Shown here piece after piece: positions 7,031-59,699 of a stretch of DNA of 64,000 bases. The stretch comes from an uncultured Candidatus Saccharibacteria bacterium (GTDB lineage: Bacteria > Patescibacteriota > Minisyncoccia > Phycocordibacterales > UBA2100): positions 1,089-65,088 of the forward strand of contig CAZUVH010000002.1 of the NCBI GenBank assembly GCA_964623775.1. The letters run 5' to 3'. The notes beneath the pieces were generated by a model. It was not told the origin of the DNA, ran no database searches, and was given only the letters and a program-made list of their open reading frames with translations. Each line of letters starts with the position of its first letter. Position 1 is the first letter of the stretch. The position numbers and the translations under genes were made by a program.

Positions 7031-7058
7031 TTGACATTTGTGCATAAAATCGTATAAT
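7031..7058 (+). promoter_or_regulatory. consensus sigma70 promoter (TTGACA-16-TATAAT)
   Basis: Perfect -35 and -10 hexamers at 7031-7036 and 7053-7058. Confidence 0.6.
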
Positions 7059-7692: not shown

Positions 7693-7735
7693 AGCATCGA
7701 CCTTTTGGCCGGTGCTTCTTTTTTGTAGGGTATAA
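7693..7735 (+). terminator. probable intrinsic terminator
   Basis: gaagca...tgcttc stem followed by ttttttg. Confidence 0.4.
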
Positions 7736-7744
7736 TTCTGACGC

Positions 7745-8683
7745 ATGTCTAAAGTAATCGTCTCAGGCTCGCTCGCGTACGATCGGATCATGGATTATCC
7801 GGGTCTTTTTGCCGAGCACGTGCTACCGGAGAAGCAAAACAGCATCAATCTGAGTTTCAATGTCGACAAATTATCCGTGGAGTTCGGCGGCACGGCTGGC
7901 AATATCGCCTACAACCTGGCGCTTCTTGGTGAGAGCCCCGAGATCATTGCATCGGCCGGTCAGGATTTTGCTGCGTACAAATCCCACCTGCTGCTCGTCG
8001 GGATCAATGCGTCGACCGTTCGATTACTTGAAGGAGTACTTACGTCCTCGGCATTCGTTTTTACTGATAAGGAAGACAATCAAATCTCCGCTTTCTATCC
8101 TGGAGCGGGCGCATCAGCATACGATACGCCGGTCAACACCGATGGTCGTGCGCTCGCGATGGTCTCGGCTGGGTGCATACAAGACATGGTAGAGCTCCCA
8201 CAACAATACAAGCGTCAGAATTTGAAATATTTTTTTGATCCCGGGCACCAAATAGACGGGCTCACACCGGACCAATTGCGAGATGGTATTTCAGGAGCGC
8301 AGGCGCTTTTCGGTAGCGATTATGAGATTGGTCTCATCGCCCAGAAGACCGGGTGGACGGAAGATGCGATCCTTGAGCATGTGCCGGTCCTCATCGTGAC
8401 GTATGGGTCAAAAGGGTCACGCATACGCTCGAGTGGGGGCGACTGGCAGGTGCCAGCGGTGGTCCCCAGTGTCGTCGAAGATCCTACGGGGGCGGGAGAC
8501 GCGTTTCGCGCGGGCTTCATCAAGGGAATTATCGCGGGATTTACACTCGATCAGTGCGCGCGCCTCGGTAGCGTCGTGGCCTCCTTCAAATCCGAAAAGC
8601 ACGGTACCCAAAATCACACTTTTTCAATGGATCAGCTGAAATCCCGCTACAAAAATGCGTACAAAGAAGATTTGAAGCTGTAA
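7745..8683 (+). CDS. PfkB-family carbohydrate/nucleoside kinase
   Basis: N-terminal GS.AYD ribokinase-like motif and PfkB signature DPTGAGDAF near C-terminus. Confidence 0.75.
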   Translation: MSKVIVSGSLAYDRIMDYPGLFAEHVLPEKQNSINLSFNVDKLSVEFGGTAGNIAYNLALLGESPEIIASAGQDFAAYKSHLLLVGINASTVRLLEGVLTSSAFVFTDKEDNQISAFYPGAGASAYDTPVNTDGRALAMVSAGCIQDMVELPQQYKRQNLKYFFDPGHQIDGLTPDQLRDGISGAQALFGSDYEIGLIAQKTGWTEDAILEHVPVLIVTYGSKGSRIRSSGGDWQVPAVVPSVVEDPTGAGDAFRAGFIKGIIAGFTLDQCARLGSVVASFKSEKHGTQNHTFSMDQLKSRYKNAYKEDLKL

Positions 8684-15013: not shown

Positions 15014-15704
<691 letters not shown>

Positions 15705-15727
15705 TCAGGTGACTCATCGTTTTTCTT

Positions 15728-16174
15728 ATGAGCGAATTGTTCGCAGCGTTTGGTCTGAATTGGAAGCTCCTCTTAATCCAGGGGCTCAATTTCGGTGCAC
15801 TGCTCGCAATACTTTCGTACCTCCTCTACAAACCTGTCTTTCGTATGCTCGACGAACGCCAGAAGAAAATAGCCGAGGGAGTGAAGACGGCCGAAGCTGC
15901 GGCAGGTAAGCTCGAGAGCGCAAAACACGAGAGCGAAGCGATCGTGGGCAAGGCCGCTCGTGAAGCCGAGGAGCTCGTCTCAAACGCACGCTCGCATGCT
16001 CAAGATCGTGGCGACGAAATCGTACGCGCGGCTGAAGAGCGCGCAGCATCGACGCTCAAGGACGCTCAGATGAAAGCCGACGAAGCCAAACGCCAGGCGC
16101 TTCTCGAGAGTCAGAAAGATATCGCGCGCGCCGCAATGCTCGCCGCTGAGAAAATTCTTCGCGAAAAAGCATAA
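15728..16174 (+). CDS. atpF: F0F1 ATP synthase subunit b
   Basis: Single N-terminal TM then long charged helix; operon position. Confidence 0.85.
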   Translation: MSELFAAFGLNWKLLLIQGLNFGALLAILSYLLYKPVFRMLDERQKKIAEGVKTAEAAAGKLESAKHESEAIVGKAAREAEELVSNARSHAQDRGDEIVRAAEERAASTLKDAQMKADEAKRQALLESQKDIARAAMLAAEKILREKA

Positions 16175-16176
16175 GT

Positions 16177-16572
16177 ATGGAAACCGCCTACGCACAAGCA
16201 CTTTGGAAGATGATCGACGGTGGCATGGATCATGCCAAGGCCGTAAAATCCCTCCATCAAATTCTTGTCGCGAAGGGCCGCTCGGTTTTGATGCCTCGAA
16301 TCGCTCGGGCATTCGAGCGCATTGCTGCGCGGGAGATCGCGCGAAGCGGCATGACTCTCACCGTCGCCCATGCAAAAGACGAGCAGCATGCAAAGACCGC
16401 CGCAAAAAAGGCGCTCAGCGCATTGCATGCAGATATGCCGAAGCATTTGCATCTGAAGGTAGACGACAGTTTGATTGGCGGATGGAGGCTTGAAGGCGCC
16501 GGCCATCTCATAGACGCGAGTTATAAGAAACAACTGCTCTCGATTTACGGCGCAGCCACGAAAGCAGAATAA
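16177..16572 (+). CDS. atpH: F0F1 ATP synthase subunit delta (short, 131 aa)
   Basis: YAQALW start and C-terminal SLIGGWRLEGAGHLIDASYKKQL typical of OSCP/delta; operon position. Confidence 0.8.
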   Translation: METAYAQALWKMIDGGMDHAKAVKSLHQILVAKGRSVLMPRIARAFERIAAREIARSGMTLTVAHAKDEQHAKTAAKKALSALHADMPKHLHLKVDDSLIGGWRLEGAGHLIDASYKKQLLSIYGAATKAE

Positions 16573-16588
16573 TAATTAATTTTTTATC

Positions 16589-18187
16589 ATGGACTCATCA
16601 ACCGTAGCGAAGATCGTCAAAGAGATCGAACAGTTCAAGCCCGCGCACGAAAGTGCGCACGTCGGACGCGTGACGAGCGTCGGCGACGGCGTCGTCGCGA
16701 TCGACGGCCTCTCCAAGGCGGTGATGAGCGAAATCATTGTTTTTGAGGAATCTGTCGGTAAATCTCTCAAGGAAGCGATGTCCGCCCGAGGCGGATCCGC
16801 CGGGGGCGGACATGTCGAGGGAGAGCTCTTCGGACTCATTTTGAATCTCGAGGAAGACGGCGTCCGTGCGGCGGTGCTTGGCGACACGGCACGCGTAGCG
16901 GAAGGCATGACCGTAAAATCATCGGGCAGAATTCTTTCCGTCCCCTCTGGCGACGAGCTTCTCGGCCGCGTGGTCAACGCACTCGGCGAGCCAATCGACG
17001 GCAAAGGACCTTTCAAGAATGTCACCATGATGCCTGTCGAACGCGAAGCGTTTGGCGTCATCGATCGCAAATCAGTATCAGTGCCGATGGCCACAGGCAT
17101 CAAGGCAATCGACGCGATGGTCCCGATTGGTCGCGGCCAGCGCGAGCTCATCATCGGCGACCGTGGCACCGGCAAGACGACTATTGCAATCGACACCATC
17201 ATCAACCAGCGCAACGAACCCGCTGAGAAGCGCCCGATCTGTATCTATGTAGCGATCGGTCAGAAGGAATCGAAGACCGCGCGCATCATGCAGCAGCTTC
17301 GCGAAGAGCACGCACTCGACTACACGATTATCGTCGACGCGCCCGCATCAGCTCCCGCCGCGCTCCAATTCCTAGCTCCATTTTCTGGCGTCGCGATCGG
17401 TGAATATTTCATGGAGAAGGGCAGGGATGTACTCATCATCTACGACGACCTCTCCAAGCAGGCAGTCGCGTACCGCGAGCTCTCGCTCCTCCTTCGTCGT
17501 CCGCCGGGCCGCGAAGCGTATCCGGGCGACATCTTCTACCTCCACTCGCGCCTCCTCGAGCGCGCGGCGTGTCTCTCGAAAGAGAAGGGCGGCGGCTCGA
17601 TCACAGCGCTTCCGATCATCGAGACGCAAGATGGCGACGTGTCCGGCTATATTCCGACCAACGTAATCTCGATCACCGACGGTCAGATCTTCTTGATTCC
17701 CGAGCTCTTCAACAAAGGCATTCGCCCTGCGATTGATGTCGGTATCTCCGTCTCGCGTGTCGGCTCATCGGCGCAGACCAAGGCCACCAAGGCGGTCGCG
17801 GGCGGTCTCAAGCTCACGCTGGCGCAATTCCGCGATCTTGAAGCATTTATGCAGTTTGCCCAGGATCTCGACAAGGCGACGGCCGAGCAGATTGGTGTCG
17901 GTCAGCGCATGGTGGAACTCCTCAAGCAGAAAAATGGCGCACCGATCCCGATGGAAATGCAGGTGGCGATACTTTTTGCTGCAGGTCAGAAGCTCTTTGC
18001 CACCGTGCCCGTATCGCGCATCTCCGAAGCCGAGGCGAAGCTCACTGCGTTTCTCGACGGACAAGCTACAGAGACGCTCGCGGAGATCAAAAAGACCGCC
18101 GTGCTTTCCGATGAATTGAAAGCGAAACTCAACAAAGCATTCGAAGAATTCAAGCTCGCACACCCCGACCTCTTCGAGACGAAGTAA
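16589..18187 (+). CDS. atpA: F0F1 ATP synthase subunit alpha
   Basis: P-loop GDRGTGKTTIAIDTIINQ and alpha-specific conserved blocks; 532 aa. Confidence 0.95.
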   Translation: MDSSTVAKIVKEIEQFKPAHESAHVGRVTSVGDGVVAIDGLSKAVMSEIIVFEESVGKSLKEAMSARGGSAGGGHVEGELFGLILNLEEDGVRAAVLGDTARVAEGMTVKSSGRILSVPSGDELLGRVVNALGEPIDGKGPFKNVTMMPVEREAFGVIDRKSVSVPMATGIKAIDAMVPIGRGQRELIIGDRGTGKTTIAIDTIINQRNEPAEKRPICIYVAIGQKESKTARIMQQLREEHALDYTIIVDAPASAPAALQFLAPFSGVAIGEYFMEKGRDVLIIYDDLSKQAVAYRELSLLLRRPPGREAYPGDIFYLHSRLLERAACLSKEKGGGSITALPIIETQDGDVSGYIPTNVISITDGQIFLIPELFNKGIRPAIDVGISVSRVGSSAQTKATKAVAGGLKLTLAQFRDLEAFMQFAQDLDKATAEQIGVGQRMVELLKQKNGAPIPMEMQVAILFAAGQKLFATVPVSRISEAEAKLTAFLDGQATETLAEIKKTAVLSDELKAKLNKAFEEFKLAHPDLFETK

Positions 18188-18192
18188 AAACT

Positions 18193-18591
18193 ATGTTCGA
18201 GAGATTCCCCAAAAAACCCAAAGATGATGATGAGCATGACCCTGCGGAGGAATTGACCAACGAAGACCTTGAAAAAATTGCAGAGGAGGCCGCAAAGATG
18301 ACTCCTGACGAAAGGATGTATTTCACACGCGAAGAGATCGCTCAATCGCAAAATAAGATGCATTTTCAGCAGGAAAGAGTCGCACATCTGAACGCGCAGA
18401 TCGAAAACCTGAAGGAGCGCCTGCGATCACTAAGTGGGGCGGAAAAAGAATTTATTCAAAAACAACTCGATGAGAAAATCGCCCACCGCGACGAATACAG
18501 CGAAGCTATGGCGGAGCTTGAGGAAGATGTGGCTGAAGGTAAAGATGTTCTCGATAATCTCGAACAAAGCAACAAGAAGCATTTCAACTAA
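18193..18591 (+). CDS. acidic coiled-coil protein embedded in ATP synthase operon (hypothetical)
   Basis: 132 aa, starts 6 nt after the atpA stop and ends 3 nt before the atpG start; very acidic, heptad-like. Confidence 0.6.
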   Translation: MFERFPKKPKDDDEHDPAEELTNEDLEKIAEEAAKMTPDERMYFTREEIAQSQNKMHFQQERVAHLNAQIENLKERLRSLSGAEKEFIQKQLDEKIAHRDEYSEAMAELEEDVAEGKDVLDNLEQSNKKHFN

Positions 18592-18593
18592 CT

Positions 18594-19571
18594 ATGGCAT
18601 CGCTTAAAAACATAAAACTCAAGATTTACTCGTACAAGAAGACGGGGACTGTCACGCACGCCATGGAGGCAGTGTCTGCCGTAAAGATGCGCAAGGCACA
18701 GGAGCGGGCACTCTCGGGCCGCGCGTACGCTGCTGTAGGGCTCTCGGTGCTTGAGCGACTCTCTGGTACCGCCGATCTCAAGCGTCATGCACTCATGTCG
18801 GCCCAAGGCCGATCTCAACCCAAGGCTGATGAGCCTAGGGCTCACGCCTCGGGCGGACAGTATGCGGGAAAAACATGTTTTATTTTGGTTACATCCGATA
18901 AGGGTCTCGCAGGATCACTCAATAGCGGTGTTATACGCAAGCTCGAGCAAGAACTCATCGATCGCAACCTTGAGCAGAAAGATGTCGTTATGATCGGCAT
19001 TGGGCGTCGCGGTGCAGACTTTTTTGCAAATCGCGGATATGAAGTGCGTGCAAAGATCGAAAATGTCGCAGAGAGCATCTCTGAGCAGGATATACGCGAG
19101 GTCACCAACAGGGTGATCGAGTGGCATGCGAGTGGCGAGATAAGCCAGTGCGTCGTCGTGTACCAAAATTTCATATCAACATTCGAGCAGCACCCGAGCG
19201 TCCGCCAGCTCGTCCCGGTGACCACCGCCTCGATGCGCGACATGGTGAAGGGCATCCGTCCGGCCAAGGGTCGCTATGCGCCCGCGCAAGATACAGAGCT
19301 CAAAGAGGGGCCGGCCGCCTATACGATCGAGCCCGATGCCGATACCGTCCTTGCGCTCCTTTTGCCGCGCCTCCTCAATGTCGCCGTCTTCCATGCGGTC
19401 TTGGAGAATAAGGCTTCCGAGCACTCCGCGCGCATGGTCGCGATGAAAAGCGCGACGGATAAGGCGAAGGAGATGGCGCACAATCTGACGCGCAAGTTCA
19501 ACAAGGTGCGTCAGGCGGCGATCACACGCGAGGTATCGGAAATCACTTCCGGTATGGAAGCGATGAAGTAG
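18594..19571 (+). CDS. atpG: F0F1 ATP synthase subunit gamma
   Basis: MASLKNIKLKI...T..AMEAVSAVKMRKAQ N-terminus and C-terminal helix RQAAITREVSEI; 325 aa (longer than typical). Confidence 0.9.
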   Translation: MASLKNIKLKIYSYKKTGTVTHAMEAVSAVKMRKAQERALSGRAYAAVGLSVLERLSGTADLKRHALMSAQGRSQPKADEPRAHASGGQYAGKTCFILVTSDKGLAGSLNSGVIRKLEQELIDRNLEQKDVVMIGIGRRGADFFANRGYEVRAKIENVAESISEQDIREVTNRVIEWHASGEISQCVVVYQNFISTFEQHPSVRQLVPVTTASMRDMVKGIRPAKGRYAPAQDTELKEGPAAYTIEPDADTVLALLLPRLLNVAVFHAVLENKASEHSARMVAMKSATDKAKEMAHNLTRKFNKVRQAAITREVSEITSGMEAMK

Positions 19572-19573
19572 TT

Positions 19574-21354
<1,781 letters not shown>

Positions 21355-50968: not shown

Positions 50969-53197
50969 TTAGTTACTTCGGGTTTGAATGAGACCACTGG
51001 AAGGCAAGCCGGTGAGGCCATACCCGTTCGTCCAATCAGAATCCGTCGTTACCGATGTTGAAAGCGTGTTCGGCGACCATATGAGATTACCGGTAACACC
51101 CGTAGCGGTGCCCATTCCATCGAAGGACGAATCGCCCAAGACTTTCGTCACAGCAGATGAGCCGCTTGTCACGCCTGAGACGGAACCTCTGAGTTCAAAG
51201 TAGTATGTGCTGCCTGCGGGCACCTGAACCGGATTAGAAGTCGGGTTGATAGTGAAGGGCACATCGGTCGTAATACTCGATACGGTTGAACCAATTTGTC
51301 CTCCCGCGCCCTGACCGGAGATAGCCGAAGAGTAGGACGAATCCGTGTACGCGAACAACTGCAAATCAGCGATTGAAAGCGATGTCATTGCAGATGAAAA
51401 TGTGAACTCATTGAGGCCGATTGCGCCGCTGCTATTTGATGTAACCTTGAAGCGAATCAAGCGGCCGTCAGCGACACCTGTTGAGGATAATGTGTCGAGC
51501 GTAAGTGTTGGGTATGACTTAACAATGCGCACACCAGCGACTCCCGCTGTTGCGCCCTGAGAATTTATTGTGGATCCAGAAGACACGCCTGTACCTTCTG
51601 CATTTGCGGGGTCCATCTTAAGCAGTGATCCGCTCACAGTTGGCTGTGTAAGATCGGCCCTCACCGTGATGAGAACATCGGTATCACTCGCGAGTGATAG
51701 CGGTGTGGACAGTGTCGATGTCGCATATGTATCACTCCCCATAAATGAGGCCGTGCCAATTAGCGTCGCGCCGTTGTAAAGATTTATTTGAGAGAAGTCG
51801 GTATTTTGTCCACTCGTGCGAGCAAGACCCAATTTAGTAAGCAAGACTGACTCGCTGGTCGCGCGGAGCTTAATAACACCCAATGTGACATTTGTCGCGC
51901 CGCCTGCGACAAGTGCATATGACGGTGAAGATGCATCCACCGTTAACGACAAAGATGCAGCTGCGACTGTCATTGTGCCGCCTGACTGGTTCCCAAATGT
52001 CTCGGTGACATTAAACCCCGATGTCACACCGGTGGAGCCCCACGTGTCGTTGTCACTGATACTCCACGTGAATGTGCCCGCTGCGGACCCTGAGACACCG
52101 CACTTCAAAGACAATGTTTTTATTGTGCCTTGTGAGACGATCAGAGAATTATCTAGGATGAAATTGTTCGGTGTCGTACCTGAATTTATTGAGTTGAGCA
52201 CGTTACTTCCGGTATTTAGCGCAGTCCCTCCGTCCCAAAGTTGGCACGAGTTCAAATGACCTGCGAGAGCTCCATTACTCAGCGCCAGTCTAGTCGGTAT
52301 TGTAGAGATGCGTACGTTTTCTTGCGATCCAACCGCACTAAGCAAAATATTTGCTAAATGGATTCCCGTACCAGCTGTAATGTTTTGTGATGCCGGACTT
52401 GCAGACATGCTCACAGACAGCGTTGGAACAAGGACTACATTAAACTCATCCGAATCATTGCCATTTACACAACCCACATCGCTCAAGTCAGTGCTGCCGT
52501 CACTGTCGTTATCAAGTCCGTCATTGCAAACAGGAACAGAATCATTCTGAAAACCAGTATAGAGTGCTGAGGAATCGGTAATGTAAACTGCGTACGCTTT
52601 CGTCTCACGAAAATCATTAAGTGTGTTCACGTTCGGTTGCGTGTGCATATCCCACGTCTGACCGATGGCAAGAGAGTCGGGATCAGTAGCATACGAGTCC
52701 GGGGTGAAATCCACCGCCTGACTCAATTTTGTTCCCAACGTGAATAGAACATCGTTAACATTATTTGAGTCAACAGATGACGCGCCGCGTTCGAGAGCGT
52801 ATGTGGGATTAGCAACACCGATCGAGTACCAACCCGTTTGGGTAAATGAGCGACTGAACAGACGTTCGTTCGGAGTCGTACTCGCTTTGTAATTGAATGT
52901 GAGCGTTTGATTAATTCCCGTTTTGTTGTTTACAAAATATCCATAGAGCGGGGTAAATTCAGCTTGACCCATGCCCGCCATAGTCGACCAAGTTGAACCA
53001 TTGAGGACATAGACATCAAAATTTGCCGATGTCTCGGCTGCCGAAAATGAGTGACTATCAAGGACTCGCGGGGTCGAAACGATATTCCAACCCGCAGAAA
53101 GAGTGACGTCCTCGCTATAGAGTGTTGCGGCGTACGCCGGTGAGGCGATAAAAATGACGGCACTGAGTACGGAACCCAAAATCGGGTAGATTTTCAT
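50969..53197 (-). CDS. large secreted Ser/Thr-rich surface protein with CNDGLDNDSDG...GC motif
   Basis: 742 aa, signal peptide MKIYPILGSVLSAVIFIASPAYA; repetitive beta-rich composition. Confidence 0.6.
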   Translation of the reverse strand: MKIYPILGSVLSAVIFIASPAYAATLYSEDVTLSAGWNIVSTPRVLDSHSFSAAETSANFDVYVLNGSTWSTMAGMGQAEFTPLYGYFVNNKTGINQTLTFNYKASTTPNERLFSRSFTQTGWYSIGVANPTYALERGASSVDSNNVNDVLFTLGTKLSQAVDFTPDSYATDPDSLAIGQTWDMHTQPNVNTLNDFRETKAYAVYITDSSALYTGFQNDSVPVCNDGLDNDSDGSTDLSDVGCVNGNDSDEFNVVLVPTLSVSMSASPASQNITAGTGIHLANILLSAVGSQENVRISTIPTRLALSNGALAGHLNSCQLWDGGTALNTGSNVLNSINSGTTPNNFILDNSLIVSQGTIKTLSLKCGVSGSAAGTFTWSISDNDTWGSTGVTSGFNVTETFGNQSGGTMTVAAASLSLTVDASSPSYALVAGGATNVTLGVIKLRATSESVLLTKLGLARTSGQNTDFSQINLYNGATLIGTASFMGSDTYATSTLSTPLSLASDTDVLITVRADLTQPTVSGSLLKMDPANAEGTGVSSGSTINSQGATAGVAGVRIVKSYPTLTLDTLSSTGVADGRLIRFKVTSNSSGAIGLNEFTFSSAMTSLSIADLQLFAYTDSSYSSAISGQGAGGQIGSTVSSITTDVPFTINPTSNPVQVPAGSTYYFELRGSVSGVTSGSSAVTKVLGDSSFDGMGTATGVTGNLIWSPNTLSTSVTTDSDWTNGYGLTGLPSSGLIQTRSN

Positions 53198-56916: not shown

Positions 56917-58251
56917 TTACTTCACCTCAGGATCGACCTCGGAAAGACGCACGTCAATGCGATTCATGTCGCGGGGGAACATCGTCGCTTCACGGATATT
57001 TTTGAGCCCCAAGATCTGCATGGTCATGCGCTCTGCGCCAAAAGCGAATCCGCCTTCTGGTGGAGCGCCGTATCGAAATGCTTCGAGGAACATCTCGATC
57101 TTTGATGGATCCATTTTCCACTCGTTCACATGGTCCATGAGCTGTTGGTAGTCATTGATACGACGACCACCAGAGAGCCATTCAACGCCACGGCAAAGGA
57201 GATCCATGCCTTCATTCACATCCGGATTCTCCGGATTTGGATATACATAGAAGGGCTTCTGACGCGTCGGGTATCCGTATACGTAAACGAAATCCGAACC
57301 CGTCTCTTCTTTGATGACTTCACAGATCCGGCGCTCTTGTTCTGGATTCAGATCTTTGTCGGCGGGGACGCCAAGCTTTTCAAATACTTCTGCAAGCGAA
57401 AGGGTTGGTGTTTTGTCGATCATAGCGGGAAGCGTCGCACCGAGGAATTCGAGCTCTTTGGCACATTTCTCTTCAAGTGCCTTCAAAATGAATCGGACAG
57501 TGGCTTCCGACATGTCGCGCACATCCGTCCACGAGTCGATAAATGCCATTTCCGCGTCGAGCGAGACGATTTCAGTGAGGTGCCGCGTCGTCGTGCTTGG
57601 CTCAGCGCGAAATACTTTGTTGACCGAAAAGACACGCTCAAAAGCGGTCATCACGATCTGCTTATAGAGCTGCGGTGACTGGGTAAGAAATGCAGAATGT
57701 TCAAAGTACTTTACCTGGAAGACTTCTGCGCCGCCCTCAGCTGTCGCTGGTGTGATCGTGGGTGCCTGGAATTCAAAAAAGCCCTGCGATTTCATGTATT
57801 CACGAAACGCGTCGATTATGACTGCCTGCACTTTAAATACCGCCTGCGATTTCGGATGACGGAGCGTGAGGGCGCGATGATCGAGCTCTGTGGTGAGGTC
57901 GACGTTGTAGCCGCTTTCAGACATATCAAAGGGAAGCGGCTCGGCCTTGGCGAGCACCGTGAGGCCGGTCACCTCGAGCTCAATATCGCCATTTTGCACT
58001 TTGGCATTACGATTTTTCTCGGGGCGCTCGTTGACCTTGCCAGTGACTTCCACGACGTATTCGATCTTTATCTCCTTTGCGGTCTCGATAGCTTCGGATT
58101 TCGGTAAAACGACACCCTGTACGGTGCCCGAGCGATCGCGGAAATCAAAAAAAACCATCTTGCCCTGATCGCGACGCACGGATACCCAGCCCTTAATGAG
58201 AGCAGTTTCCCCCACCTTTGTATTCAAATCCCCTATCATTGTCCGCTCCAT
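56917..58251 (-). CDS. aspS: class IIb aminoacyl-tRNA synthetase, archaeal/eukaryotic-type aspartyl- (or asparaginyl-) tRNA synthetase
   Basis: N-terminal OB fold, motif 2 FRAE, motif 3 GFAFGAERM; 444 aa. Confidence 0.7.
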   Translation of the reverse strand: MERTMIGDLNTKVGETALIKGWVSVRRDQGKMVFFDFRDRSGTVQGVVLPKSEAIETAKEIKIEYVVEVTGKVNERPEKNRNAKVQNGDIELEVTGLTVLAKAEPLPFDMSESGYNVDLTTELDHRALTLRHPKSQAVFKVQAVIIDAFREYMKSQGFFEFQAPTITPATAEGGAEVFQVKYFEHSAFLTQSPQLYKQIVMTAFERVFSVNKVFRAEPSTTTRHLTEIVSLDAEMAFIDSWTDVRDMSEATVRFILKALEEKCAKELEFLGATLPAMIDKTPTLSLAEVFEKLGVPADKDLNPEQERRICEVIKEETGSDFVYVYGYPTRQKPFYVYPNPENPDVNEGMDLLCRGVEWLSGGRRINDYQQLMDHVNEWKMDPSKIEMFLEAFRYGAPPEGGFAFGAERMTMQILGLKNIREATMFPRDMNRIDVRLSEVDPEVK

Positions 58252-58302
58252 ATGGCACTAGTGTAGCAGAAATTGCTGGCCGTAGTGAAATTTTGCGGCG
58301 AT

Positions 58303-58330
58303 TGACAAAAGATCGTTTCGCATGTATAAT
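58303..58330 (+). promoter_or_regulatory. perfect consensus sigma70 promoter (TTGACA-16-TATAAT)
   Basis: TTGACA 58303-58308, TATAAT 58325-58330; drives the small-peptide genes. Confidence 0.6.
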
Positions 58331-58405
58331 TACATTAGTCGGTGCCGATTGCCGTTAAGCCAACCTTCTGGGCTCATCCACCCCCACATCTCAAGGAGAA
58401 AACGT

Positions 58406-58507
58406 ATGCTGAAACTTTCAAGAATCGAATGTGTGCTGATCGCTCCGATTGGCGCCAGTATCTTGATTGCTCTCGTGGGACTTGCCCTTGTCCTCAATGG
58501 CATGTAG
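58406..58507 (+). CDS. 33-aa hydrophobic peptide (hypothetical)
   Basis: AAGGAG RBS 8 nt upstream; MLKLSRIECVLIAPIGASILIALVGLALVLNGM*. Confidence 0.45.
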   Translation: MLKLSRIECVLIAPIGASILIALVGLALVLNGM

Positions 58508-58555
58508 GTGTGGTCACATTCCGCATCACAGGTCTTTTCTGCAAAAGGAGGCTCC

Positions 58556-58711
58556 ATGAAACTCCCAACAATTTTGACGTTGCTCGCTATCGCTATTCTC
58601 GCCGCGCTTCTCCTCGTCAATGGGGCCGGATATGGTAGCGGAATCGGATACATTCTGATTACGACCAGTGTCTCGTGTGTGGTCATCGCTGCCGTCGTCG
58701 CTGTCGACTGA
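58556..58711 (+). CDS. 51-aa hydrophobic peptide (hypothetical, paralog of preceding peptide)
   Basis: AAGGAGG RBS; MKLPTILTLLAIAILAALLLVNGAGYGSGIGYILITTSVSCVVIAAVVAVD*. Confidence 0.45.
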   Translation: MKLPTILTLLAIAILAALLLVNGAGYGSGIGYILITTSVSCVVIAAVVAVD

Positions 58712-58728
58712 TGTAATGGCTGCTGCCA

Positions 58729-58765
58729 TAGAAGACCTGTCTTTATTGGCAGGTCTTTTCTTTTT
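58729..58765 (+). terminator. intrinsic terminator after peptide pair
   Basis: aagacctg-tctttattgg-caggtctt followed by ttctttttat. Confidence 0.6.
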
Positions 58766-59699
58766 ATATTGTTACTCCGACCTTCGTGCGGACGTCTTTC
58801 ATTTTGAGCTCTGCAATTGCACGAGCCTTTTCGCTCCCCGCCCTCAATATCTGTTCAACGTCTCCATCAGTGATACTCGCTCGCCTCTCACGCATCGGGG
58901 CTACTACAGCTTCGATATCCGCGATGAGCGCCTCTTTGCTCGCCTTGAAATTGCCCTTATTCGCAGTGTAAATCGGCGAGAGTTCCTCGCGGGATTTAAA
59001 AAGGAGGTGCATGTTGTACACATTCTCCGGGCTCTCGCCGGTTGAATTGGTGACGATACTCATCACCGCTTTTGCGATTTCATCTTTGCTACCAAAAAGC
59101 GGGATGGTGTTGCCATAGCTCTTGCTCATCTTCTTGCCATCGGTACCAGGTACGATTGCGACACTCTTCAGGATCGCCTCTTTAGGCTCCTTGAACGTCA
59201 CGCCGTATGCATTATTGAATTTTGCGGCCGCCTCACGTGCGTATTCGAGGTGCTGACGCTGATCCTCTCCGACTGGCACCACCTCTGTGTCGTAAAGTAA
59301 TATGTCTGCCGCCATAAGCATTGGGTAATTGAAAAGCCCGGCATTTGCTTCCATACCTTTCGCCACCTTGTCCTTATACGCATGCGCGAGCTCGAGGAAC
59401 GGTACGGTGACGAGACATTCAAACATCCACGCAAGCTCCGTGTGCTCGGGAATGCGCGACTGCTGGAAAATCACGGCCTTTTTAGGATCGACTCCAGCGG
59501 CTACGTAATCGCGGACGATGTCGCGGATGTATCCGCGCAACTGCTCGGGATTCTTGAGCGAGGTGAGCGCATGATAATCCGCCACCATGAGGAAGCTCTC
59601 GTACTTGTCGTACATATCGACAAACGGCTTGAGCGCGCCAAAATAGTTGCCAATGTGCAGCGCGCCCGAGGGCTGTAATCCTGTGAGAAGCCGAGCCAT
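58764..59699 (-). CDS. trpS: tryptophanyl-tRNA synthetase
   Basis: LTGLQPSGALHIGNYFGA (HIGH) and KMSKSYGN (KMSKS); 311 aa. Confidence 0.9.
   Translation of the reverse strand: MARLLTGLQPSGALHIGNYFGALKPFVDMYDKYESFLMVADYHALTSLKNPEQLRGYIRDIVRDYVAAGVDPKKAVIFQQSRIPEHTELAWMFECLVTVPFLELAHAYKDKVAKGMEANAGLFNYPMLMAADILLYDTEVVPVGEDQRQHLEYAREAAAKFNNAYGVTFKEPKEAILKSVAIVPGTDGKKMSKSYGNTIPLFGSKDEIAKAVMSIVTNSTGESPENVYNMHLLFKSREELSPIYTANKGNFKASKEALIADIEAVVAPMRERRASITDGDVEQILRAGSEKARAIAELKMKDVRTKVGVTI

Follow-up and report, generated by a model that had tools for sequence, protein, structure and literature searches.

What occupies the space between two genes that are usually adjacent, and where did it come from? 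In the 64,000-nucleotide (nt) stretch analysed here (the window), which belongs to a genome of the Candidate Phyla Radiation (CPR, or Patescibacteria) of the Paceibacteria/Parcubacteria type, a 512-nt gap between trpS and aspS holds, on the strand opposite both genes, a cassette of two short open reading frames (ORFs). The order trpS then aspS is kept across about 85 related loci and the gap measures 1-20 nt in most of them, so that the gap of the window represents an insertion at a site that elsewhere forms an operon junction. This cassette is probably a self-contained transcription unit, likely to be highly expressed, for two predicted small membrane peptides of 33 and 51 amino acids, hereafter p33 and p51. 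A descent of p33 from an Flp-like pilin gene is likely, although the peptide falls outside the definition of that family, and p51 is a strain-specific orphan.

The cassette is oriented divergently from aspS and convergently with trpS. Its promoter and intrinsic terminator delimit a predicted mRNA of about 430 nt (coordinates are collected in Table 1). The first-pass annotation of this DNA had recognized the consensus promoter and placed it at 58303 with a 16-nt spacer; its hexamers match the sigma-70 consensus at 12 of 12 positions, and the actual start and spacer are 58302 and 17 nt. It had also been called the strongest promoter of the window, and it is one of two equally strong ones: perfect matches occur twice against 0.01 expected by chance. 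The other (7031-7058, plus strand) combines TTGACA and TATAAT with a 16-nt spacer, and an ORF beginning MSDIKDIRVEVR opens about 35 nt downstream of it. The remaining elements of that description hold, namely two short ORFs each preceded by an AAGGAG(G) ribosome-binding site, the peptide sequences, which had been quoted exactly, a terminator made of a 12-bp stem and a T-run, and the divergence from aspS, borne out by the gene coordinates. Transcription would start near 58337, and the resulting 5' untranslated region folds in no unusual way (z = +1.1). On the minus strand the terminator hairpin would lose its G-U pairs and is followed by no T-run, which suggests that it works for the plus strand only.

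Several features argue that this transcript is translated. The window genes have AGGAG or GGAGG 5' of the start codon in 5 of 66 cases. Most lack a Shine-Dalgarno (SD) site; instead, a -10-like hexamer (TATAAT, TACAAT or TAGAAT) precedes the start codon by 7-10 nt, as seen at 7745, 19981, 50969-53197 on the minus strand, trpS (59699) and aspS (58251), which suggests that mRNAs without a leader are common in this genome. Given how few genes carry a strong SD site, those of p33 and p51 imply that both peptides are probably synthesized abundantly. About 0.18 combinations of SD site, start codon and ORF would be expected in a stretch of the size of the cassette, and two strong SD-ATG pairs are found in 430 nt. 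Among the 554 window ORFs of 28-70 amino acids that start with ATG, p51 ranks first and p33 second in hydrophobicity. The description of the unit as highly expressed small membrane peptides escaping annotation is thus supported by the sequence, and a public gene call on a contig identical to this region includes both p33 and p51.

The transcript, about 430 nt long, could instead be a non-coding RNA that contains the ORFs by accident. A short unit bounded by promoter and terminator would suit such a gene, p51 has no conservation at the protein level, and the whole transcript folds better than shuffled sequences (z = -2.1); much of this last signal may come from the terminator hairpin, the 5' untranslated region being unstructured. 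Nothing in the window reaches an Rfam 15 gathering score. At E <= 10 the region gave just one match (58663-58766, 25 bits, E = 0.1), most of which overlaps the terminator, and ARAGORN detected neither a tRNA nor a transfer-messenger RNA. The two SD-ATG pairs and the extreme hydrophobicity of both ORFs also speak against an RNA gene, as does the fact that relatives keep a peptide motif and not the nucleotide sequence. The first-pass annotation had proposed conservation of the nucleotide sequence alone as the mark of an RNA gene; for p33 the comparison favours coding, the motif being kept while third codon positions differ. The cassette is most likely protein-coding, and we give an RNA gene hardly any credence. 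An attenuator or leader peptide of trpS or aspS was also considered and rejected: the cassette lies on the wrong strand and holds no runs of Trp, Asp or Asn codons.

Evidence on the origin of p33 comes from the same junction in relatives. Among GTDB species, the proteins closest to AspS of the window come from 'Adlerbacteria', 'Nomurabacteria', 'Kaiserbacteria' and Paceibacterota metagenome-assembled genomes, at no more than 83% identity. BLAST found neither nucleotide nor peptide conservation of the cassette in 80 GTDB relatives, and two public Logan contigs match the region at 100% identity and therefore bring no comparative information. In several lineages antisense cassettes occupy the gap, each with a promoter of TTGAC type pointing away from aspS and a terminator that borders on trpS. 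Their cargo differs: a single 31-amino-acid ORF, MPKGAIEWGLIAAGTALLVISVYNSIGHHWH, in L084/L085 (AspS 85% identical to that of the window); a 114-amino-acid ORF followed by one of 51 amino acids, MTPKWIEYSFIALYFLLFAVVVYYAGNRKRH..., in L083 (AspS 87%); a 73-amino-acid soluble ORF in L089 (AspS 84%); a 124-amino-acid ORF in L022; and a 217-amino-acid ORF beneath another perfect promoter in L021. Promoters of the same type stand at the equivalent position in L083, L084 and L099, and the cassette ends, promoter and terminator alike, are homologous to those of the window in L084 and L083. The trpS-aspS junction is a hotspot, a recurrent slot for lineage-specific cargo, and the cassette itself is limited to a few lineages. 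In several more distant relatives the gap carries a sense-strand protein of 70-92 amino acids with two helices, and in L023 a sense ORF of 187 amino acids lies between two copies of the palindrome TAAGATCACAATTTGTGATCTTAG.

Four of these lineages (the window, L084, L083 and L099) have a small gap ORF starting M-x(2-5)-IE-x-x-[LF]-IA; the tighter form M-x(2-5)-IE-[CWY]-x-[LF]-IA is common to p33 and its small hydrophobic counterparts in L084 and L083. The pattern IE..[LFIVM]IA within the first 16 residues occurs in 5 of 33,928 ORFs of related DNA, four of which are gap ORFs (p < 1e-3). The motif codons differ between lineages at synonymous third positions (ATC/ATA, GAA/GAG, CTG/CTC/TTC, GCT/GCC). 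p33 shares its slot with the L084 ORF and is flanked by a promoter and a terminator homologous to those on either side of that ORF, and L084 and L083 are the closest cassette-bearing relatives (AspS 85-87% identical).

A likely affiliation of this group is suggested by a more distant locus. A metagenome search with a DNA pattern for the aspS promoter signature returned 0 matches. A second pattern, combining SD site, ATG and IE motif, returned 53, mostly chance or unrelated (TatA-like proteins, cardiolipin synthase); the useful one was L099/L107, a syntenic metagenome locus whose TrpS and AspS are 67% and 52% identical to those of the window and whose gene order aspS-scpA-scpB-dac-mraY-ftsW is read from ORF sizes and succession. 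Its cassette is built as in the window, antisense in the gap, with a perfect TTGACA-17-TATAAT promoter, an AGGAG SD site and a terminator against the trpS stop codon. The ORF encodes 123 amino acids (MATAIEYGLIAAGISVAIIAVVGG...) and matches the Pfam family Flp_Fap (PF04964) with 36 bits and E = 5.9e-9, above the gathering cutoff of 32.2 bits. The alignment begins at profile position 8, meaning that the protein has no leader peptide, and the transcript offers no in-frame alternative start upstream. Compared with Flp pilins, the L099 protein starts straight at the 'mature' N-terminus (M-ATAIEYGLIA) and has an atypical C-terminal extension of about 95 amino acids.

The 31-amino-acid gene of L084 is clearly homologous to that of L099, judging from the sequences: their DNA alignment scores z = 9.2 with none of 500 shuffles as good, tblastn gives E = 5.7e-4, a profile built from L099 and L111 alone finds the L084 ORF at E = 1.6e-4, and Pfam Flp_Fap matches it with 22.2 bits (E = 1.3e-4), below the gathering score. 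The helix of p33 itself aligns in frame with that of L099, IECVLIAPIGASILIALVG against IEYGLIAAGISVAIIAVVG, with 9 of 19 residues identical. No remnant of the C-terminal domain of L099 was found in the window gap. Just past the p51 stop codon, an ATG opens a frame (58716-58757, plus strand) beginning MAAAIEDLSLLAGL that resembles MATAIEYGLIAAGI of L099 (7 of 14 residues identical, E = 5.9); this frame shares sequence with the terminator hairpin and continues into trpS on the antisense strand, and the resemblance is probably due to chance. Leaderless Flp-like starts also exist outside the clade of the window: L111 encodes at 7735-8076 (plus strand) a 113-amino-acid protein, MATAIEYGLIASLVAVAVITVVG..., matching Flp_Fap with 37 bits, on a contig that looks more GC-rich by eye, and the high-GC contigs L095 and L110 encode 49-amino-acid peptides starting M(H/R)R(A/W)IEWLLIA.

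How closely, then, does p33 resemble an Flp/Fap pilin (type IVc/Tad; PilA in PDB 8u1k, and 8u2b)? Like these proteins, it is short, its one hydrophobic helix opens on the Flp pattern IE-aromatic-x-L-I-A, and its gene lies in a unit that is short or monocistronic, strongly promoted and closed by a terminator of its own. Residues 9-31 are all hydrophobic without a break (grand average of hydropathy 1.79), providing the hydrophobic helix of about 20 residues that characterizes the family. The differences lie at the N-terminus, in size and in gene context, and they count against descent from such a gene, as do several search results. Flp/Fap pilins have a leader ending in Gly, with a prepilin-peptidase site G/XXXXEY (Glu at +5, Tyr at +6). 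p33 begins MLKLSRIEC, without a leader or a Gly before IE, with Glu at residue 8 and Cys in place of Tyr, and its 33 amino acids make it shorter than any known pilin. The Gly site is no better kept in the relatives: the L083 ORF has none, that of L084 has a Gly three residues before the Glu and that of L099 has no leader. Neither p33 nor p51 matches Pfam Flp_Fap even at E <= 10, a leave-one-out profile of L099, L111, L084 and L083 does not retrieve p33, and the DNA similarity between p33 and L084, taken by itself, is borderline (z = 1.7, p about 0.08). The motif is not exclusive: in TatA-like proteins, cardiolipin synthase and other unrelated proteins, IE[WY]xLIA likewise opens helices. From the distribution of positive charges, the four homologues would differ in their membrane orientation.

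The genomic setting adds to these objections. Tad assembly genes (the TadV/CpaA peptidase, the TadA/CpaF ATPase and TadB/C) do not adjoin p33; genes for assembling Tad or type IV pili were found neither among the 27 window proteins scanned in Pfam nor in the neighbourhoods of L082-L089 or L099. A relative whose AspS is 87% identical has a 5-nt gap and no cassette, so that the unit is accessory and dispensable. Profile matches to Flp pilins in the PDB were weak (E about 1) and ranked below chance helices of G-protein-coupled receptors, and are not usable as evidence; a profile of three short peptides retrieved p33 only, the NCBIfam and PADLOC libraries gave nothing meaningful, and a literature search on Flp pili in CPR bacteria found nothing relevant. 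Pilus genes had been looked for in the tightly packed operon at 15315-21354 (plus strand), which turned out to encode an F-type ATP synthase (subunits c, b, delta, alpha, gamma and beta); two additional ORFs in it, 18193-18591 (132 amino acids) and 19574-19945 (123 amino acids), have no convincing Pfam domain, with one sub-threshold match. The missing Pfam match, the failed leave-one-out retrieval and the marginal DNA similarity are the reasons why we do not file p33 as an Flp/Fap member. It is best described, on its sequence, as a minimal variant related to Flp-type pilin-like proteins, and we still hold its descent from an Flp-like gene to be likely.

The second peptide has another history. 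p51 is predicted by AlphaFold2 to form a helix (residues 3-25), a turn and a second helix (29-50), with a predicted local distance difference test score of 79. Searches of 5.8 billion protein clusters and an exhaustive phmmer search of 1.84 billion representatives both returned p51 alone, and no remnant of it was found in related gaps. A match to an SLATT-type transmembrane stretch is weak (13.8 bits, E = 0.008). The p51 segment is bracketed by a direct repeat, the 12-mer CAGGTCTTTTCT, present in the spacer after p33 and again in the 3' arm of the terminator. Aligned to the window terminator and to that of L084, the first copy has the look of a degraded version of them, and it reads as what is left of the terminator of an older cassette that held p33 only. 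It is also complementary to the 5' arm of the terminator (58727-58740), making an alternative long-range pairing across p51 possible.

p33 and p51 had been described at first as tandem paralogues sharing an (A)LLLV(L)NG core, a proposal that the comparison does not sustain. Their best protein alignment scores 29, a value reached by 42-60% of composition-preserving shuffles. BLASTP gives E = 0.07-0.1 in inconsistent registers, leaving the shared core at chance level, and codon-shuffle tests are negative. A chain alignment of the two units does reach p of about 0.003-0.009, nearly all of it contributed by the non-coding 12-mer, the sole significant DNA repeat. Neither the link of p33 to Flp/Fap-type genes in relatives nor the orphan status of p51 had been foreseen in the first-pass annotation.

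The absence of any homologue of p51, together with the failure of p33 in family profiles, would also fit a locus in decay. p33 and the 31-amino-acid ORF of L084 would then be truncated leftovers of a full-length Flp-like gene and p51 a chance or de novo ORF, both peptides being functionless while selection keeps the strong promoter, for example as part of a bidirectional region with aspS or to block read-through from trpS. The variation of cargo under equivalent promoters (ORFs of 73, 124 and 217 amino acids in L089, L022 and L021, and of 114 plus 51 in L083) and the close relatives lacking the cassette agree with such a remnant. Against it, both ORFs retain strong SD sites at ideal spacing, although few genes of this genome have such sites, both stand far outside the usual range of hydrophobicity, and two lineages independently keep intact motif ORFs of 31-33 amino acids whose codons differ synonymously. 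We regard decay as unlikely, and yet as the most credible of the alternatives.

Small hydrophobic peptides encoded between genes also call to mind the type I toxins, to which the first-pass annotation had likened them. Hok, TisB and Fst are hydrophobic membrane peptides of 30-50 amino acids, intergenic and missed by annotation, and p33 and p51 resemble them in being small, very hydrophobic and intergenic. Toxic or membrane-damaging peptides could be held in check by antisense transcription: trpS seems to have no good terminator on the minus strand, so that read-through would produce a transcript antisense to the cassette mRNA, and the unit is accessory and variably distributed. The regulatory signals point the other way. 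Between 58200 and 58800 on the minus strand, the only promoter-like site matching at least 8 of 12 consensus positions is the aspS promoter, and none lies inside the unit to drive a cognate antisense RNA. A consensus promoter and strong SD sites imply constitutive high expression, the opposite of tight repression and intolerable for a toxin. Models of defence and toxin systems remained unmatched apart from the weak SLATT-type match of p51, and the L099 homologue is a 123-amino-acid Flp_Fap protein, pilin-like rather than toxin-like. A toxin is accordingly a doubtful candidate, to which we assign a low probability.

Still less probable is a secreted bacteriocin-like or signalling peptide, another early suggestion, in which p51 would be exported by way of its N-terminal hydrophobic segment. 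Residues 1-23 do look like a Sec signal, possibly cleaved after VNG or GAG, and the sequence is glycine-rich afterwards; the C-terminal half is itself a predicted membrane helix, no double-glycine leader is present, and no transporter, immunity or modification gene lies nearby. The neighbours of the cassette are housekeeping genes (trpS, aspS, scpA/B, a PBP5-type peptidase and mraY), and a histidine kinase with seven transmembrane helices situated 2 kb away occurs in relatives with and without the cassette and is independent of it.

We favour, as the more probable account, a two-gene operon for small membrane proteins with its own transcription, in which p33 is a shortened Flp-like descendant and p51 a later addition. 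From the consensus promoter an mRNA of about 430 nt would be made, and both p33 and p51 would be abundantly translated. p33 would be a shortened and strongly diverged descendant of a leaderless Flp/Fap-pilin-like gene of the same slot, keeping the Glu-containing helix start (IE-x-x-LIA ... VG) and with the leader, the cleavage site at Gly and the Tyr next to Glu either lost or never possessed. In type IV and Flp pilins, the Glu-containing helix start mediates subunit packing. Without a leader and a Gly site p33 would need no prepilin peptidase, and it would probably be inserted unprocessed into the membrane as a single-pass helix, with an N-terminus that K3 and R6 suggest to be cytoplasmic. 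The ancestral cassette would have resembled that of L084, with promoter, p33 and terminator, the p51 segment being added downstream later in the lineage of the window.

As to function, p33 is more likely an abundant structural membrane helix, a pilin-like or accessory subunit, than a toxin. A possible functional analogy is offered by AcrZ, KdpF and CydX, single-helix proteins of less than 50 amino acids whose genes belong to, or lie close to, the operon that encodes their partner complex; p33 could likewise be an accessory subunit of a membrane complex, with the differences that the cassette is isolated between two aminoacyl-tRNA synthetase genes and that no sequence similarity exists. The lack of assembly genes in the neighbourhoods scanned and the orientation varying between homologues make a true pilus role speculative, and we consider it unlikely. 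A broader proposal, to which we attach little probability, is that Paceibacteria possess a family of leaderless, Flp-derived 'mini-pilins' of 31-123 amino acids, expressed from consensus promoters in the trpS-aspS slot, with p51 as a lineage-specific partner. Being made with a mature-like N-terminus (ATAIEY... after removal of Met in L099), such proteins could enter the membrane, and possibly a filament, without a prepilin peptidase, and p33 would then be the smallest pilin-type subunit known.

The remaining features of the junction are listed with the cassette in Table 1. The aspS promoter stands back to back with that of the cassette, and its -10 box ends 9 nt 5' of the ATG, from which the aspS mRNA would be leaderless or nearly so; this element is kept in L083, L084 and L022, relatives that likewise have a gap.

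Table 1. Coordinates of the trpS-aspS junction and of the cassette it contains, in window positions
Feature	Position	Strand	Description
aspS	56917-58251	-	
aspS promoter	58260-58289	-	TTCACT, 18 nt, TGcTACACT
Cassette promoter, sigma-70-type	58302-58330	+	TTGACA 58302-58307, 17-nt spacer, TATAAT 58325-58330; 12/12 consensus match
Cassette 5' untranslated region	58337-58405	+	predicted, about 70 nt
SD site of p33	58393-58398	+	AAGGAG, 7 nt before ATG at 58406
p33	58406-58507	+	MLKLSRIECVLIAPIGASILIALVGLALVLNGM; predicted single-pass membrane peptide, Flp-like helix start IE-x-x-LIA ... VG
12-nt repeat	58529-58540	+	CAGGTCTTTTCT; exact copy of terminator 3' arm (58750-58761), in spacer after p33
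SD site of p51	58545-58551	+	AAGGAGG, 4 nt before ATG at 58556
p51	58556-58711	+	MKLPTILTLLAIAILAALLLVNGAGYGSGIGYILITTSVSCVVIAAVVAVD; SD-preceded ORF, predicted two-helix membrane hairpin
Intrinsic terminator	58730-58768	+	12-bp stem (58730-58759), 6-nt loop, T-run; abuts trpS stop; homologous to L084 cassette terminator
trpS	58764-59699	-	stop codon at 58764-58766

Little is known of the surface and membrane proteins of CPR bacteria, which have very small genomes and rely on contact with host cells. At this locus, proteins of less than 55 amino acids that are probably strongly expressed lie hidden between core genes, and one of them, p33, is likely traceable to a leaderless Flp-type pilin-like gene. 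The trpS-aspS slot repeatedly carries lineage-specific cargo under a conserved strong promoter. Should the peptides be structural, the locus would bear on how appendages can be built with a minimal set of genes; should they not be, it would clearly exemplify both the decay of a gene and, in p51, the origin of a small new one. Its value would lie in the discovery of small proteins in CPR bacteria, in a leaderless Flp-like family at a conserved slot and in a hotspot of variable cargo.

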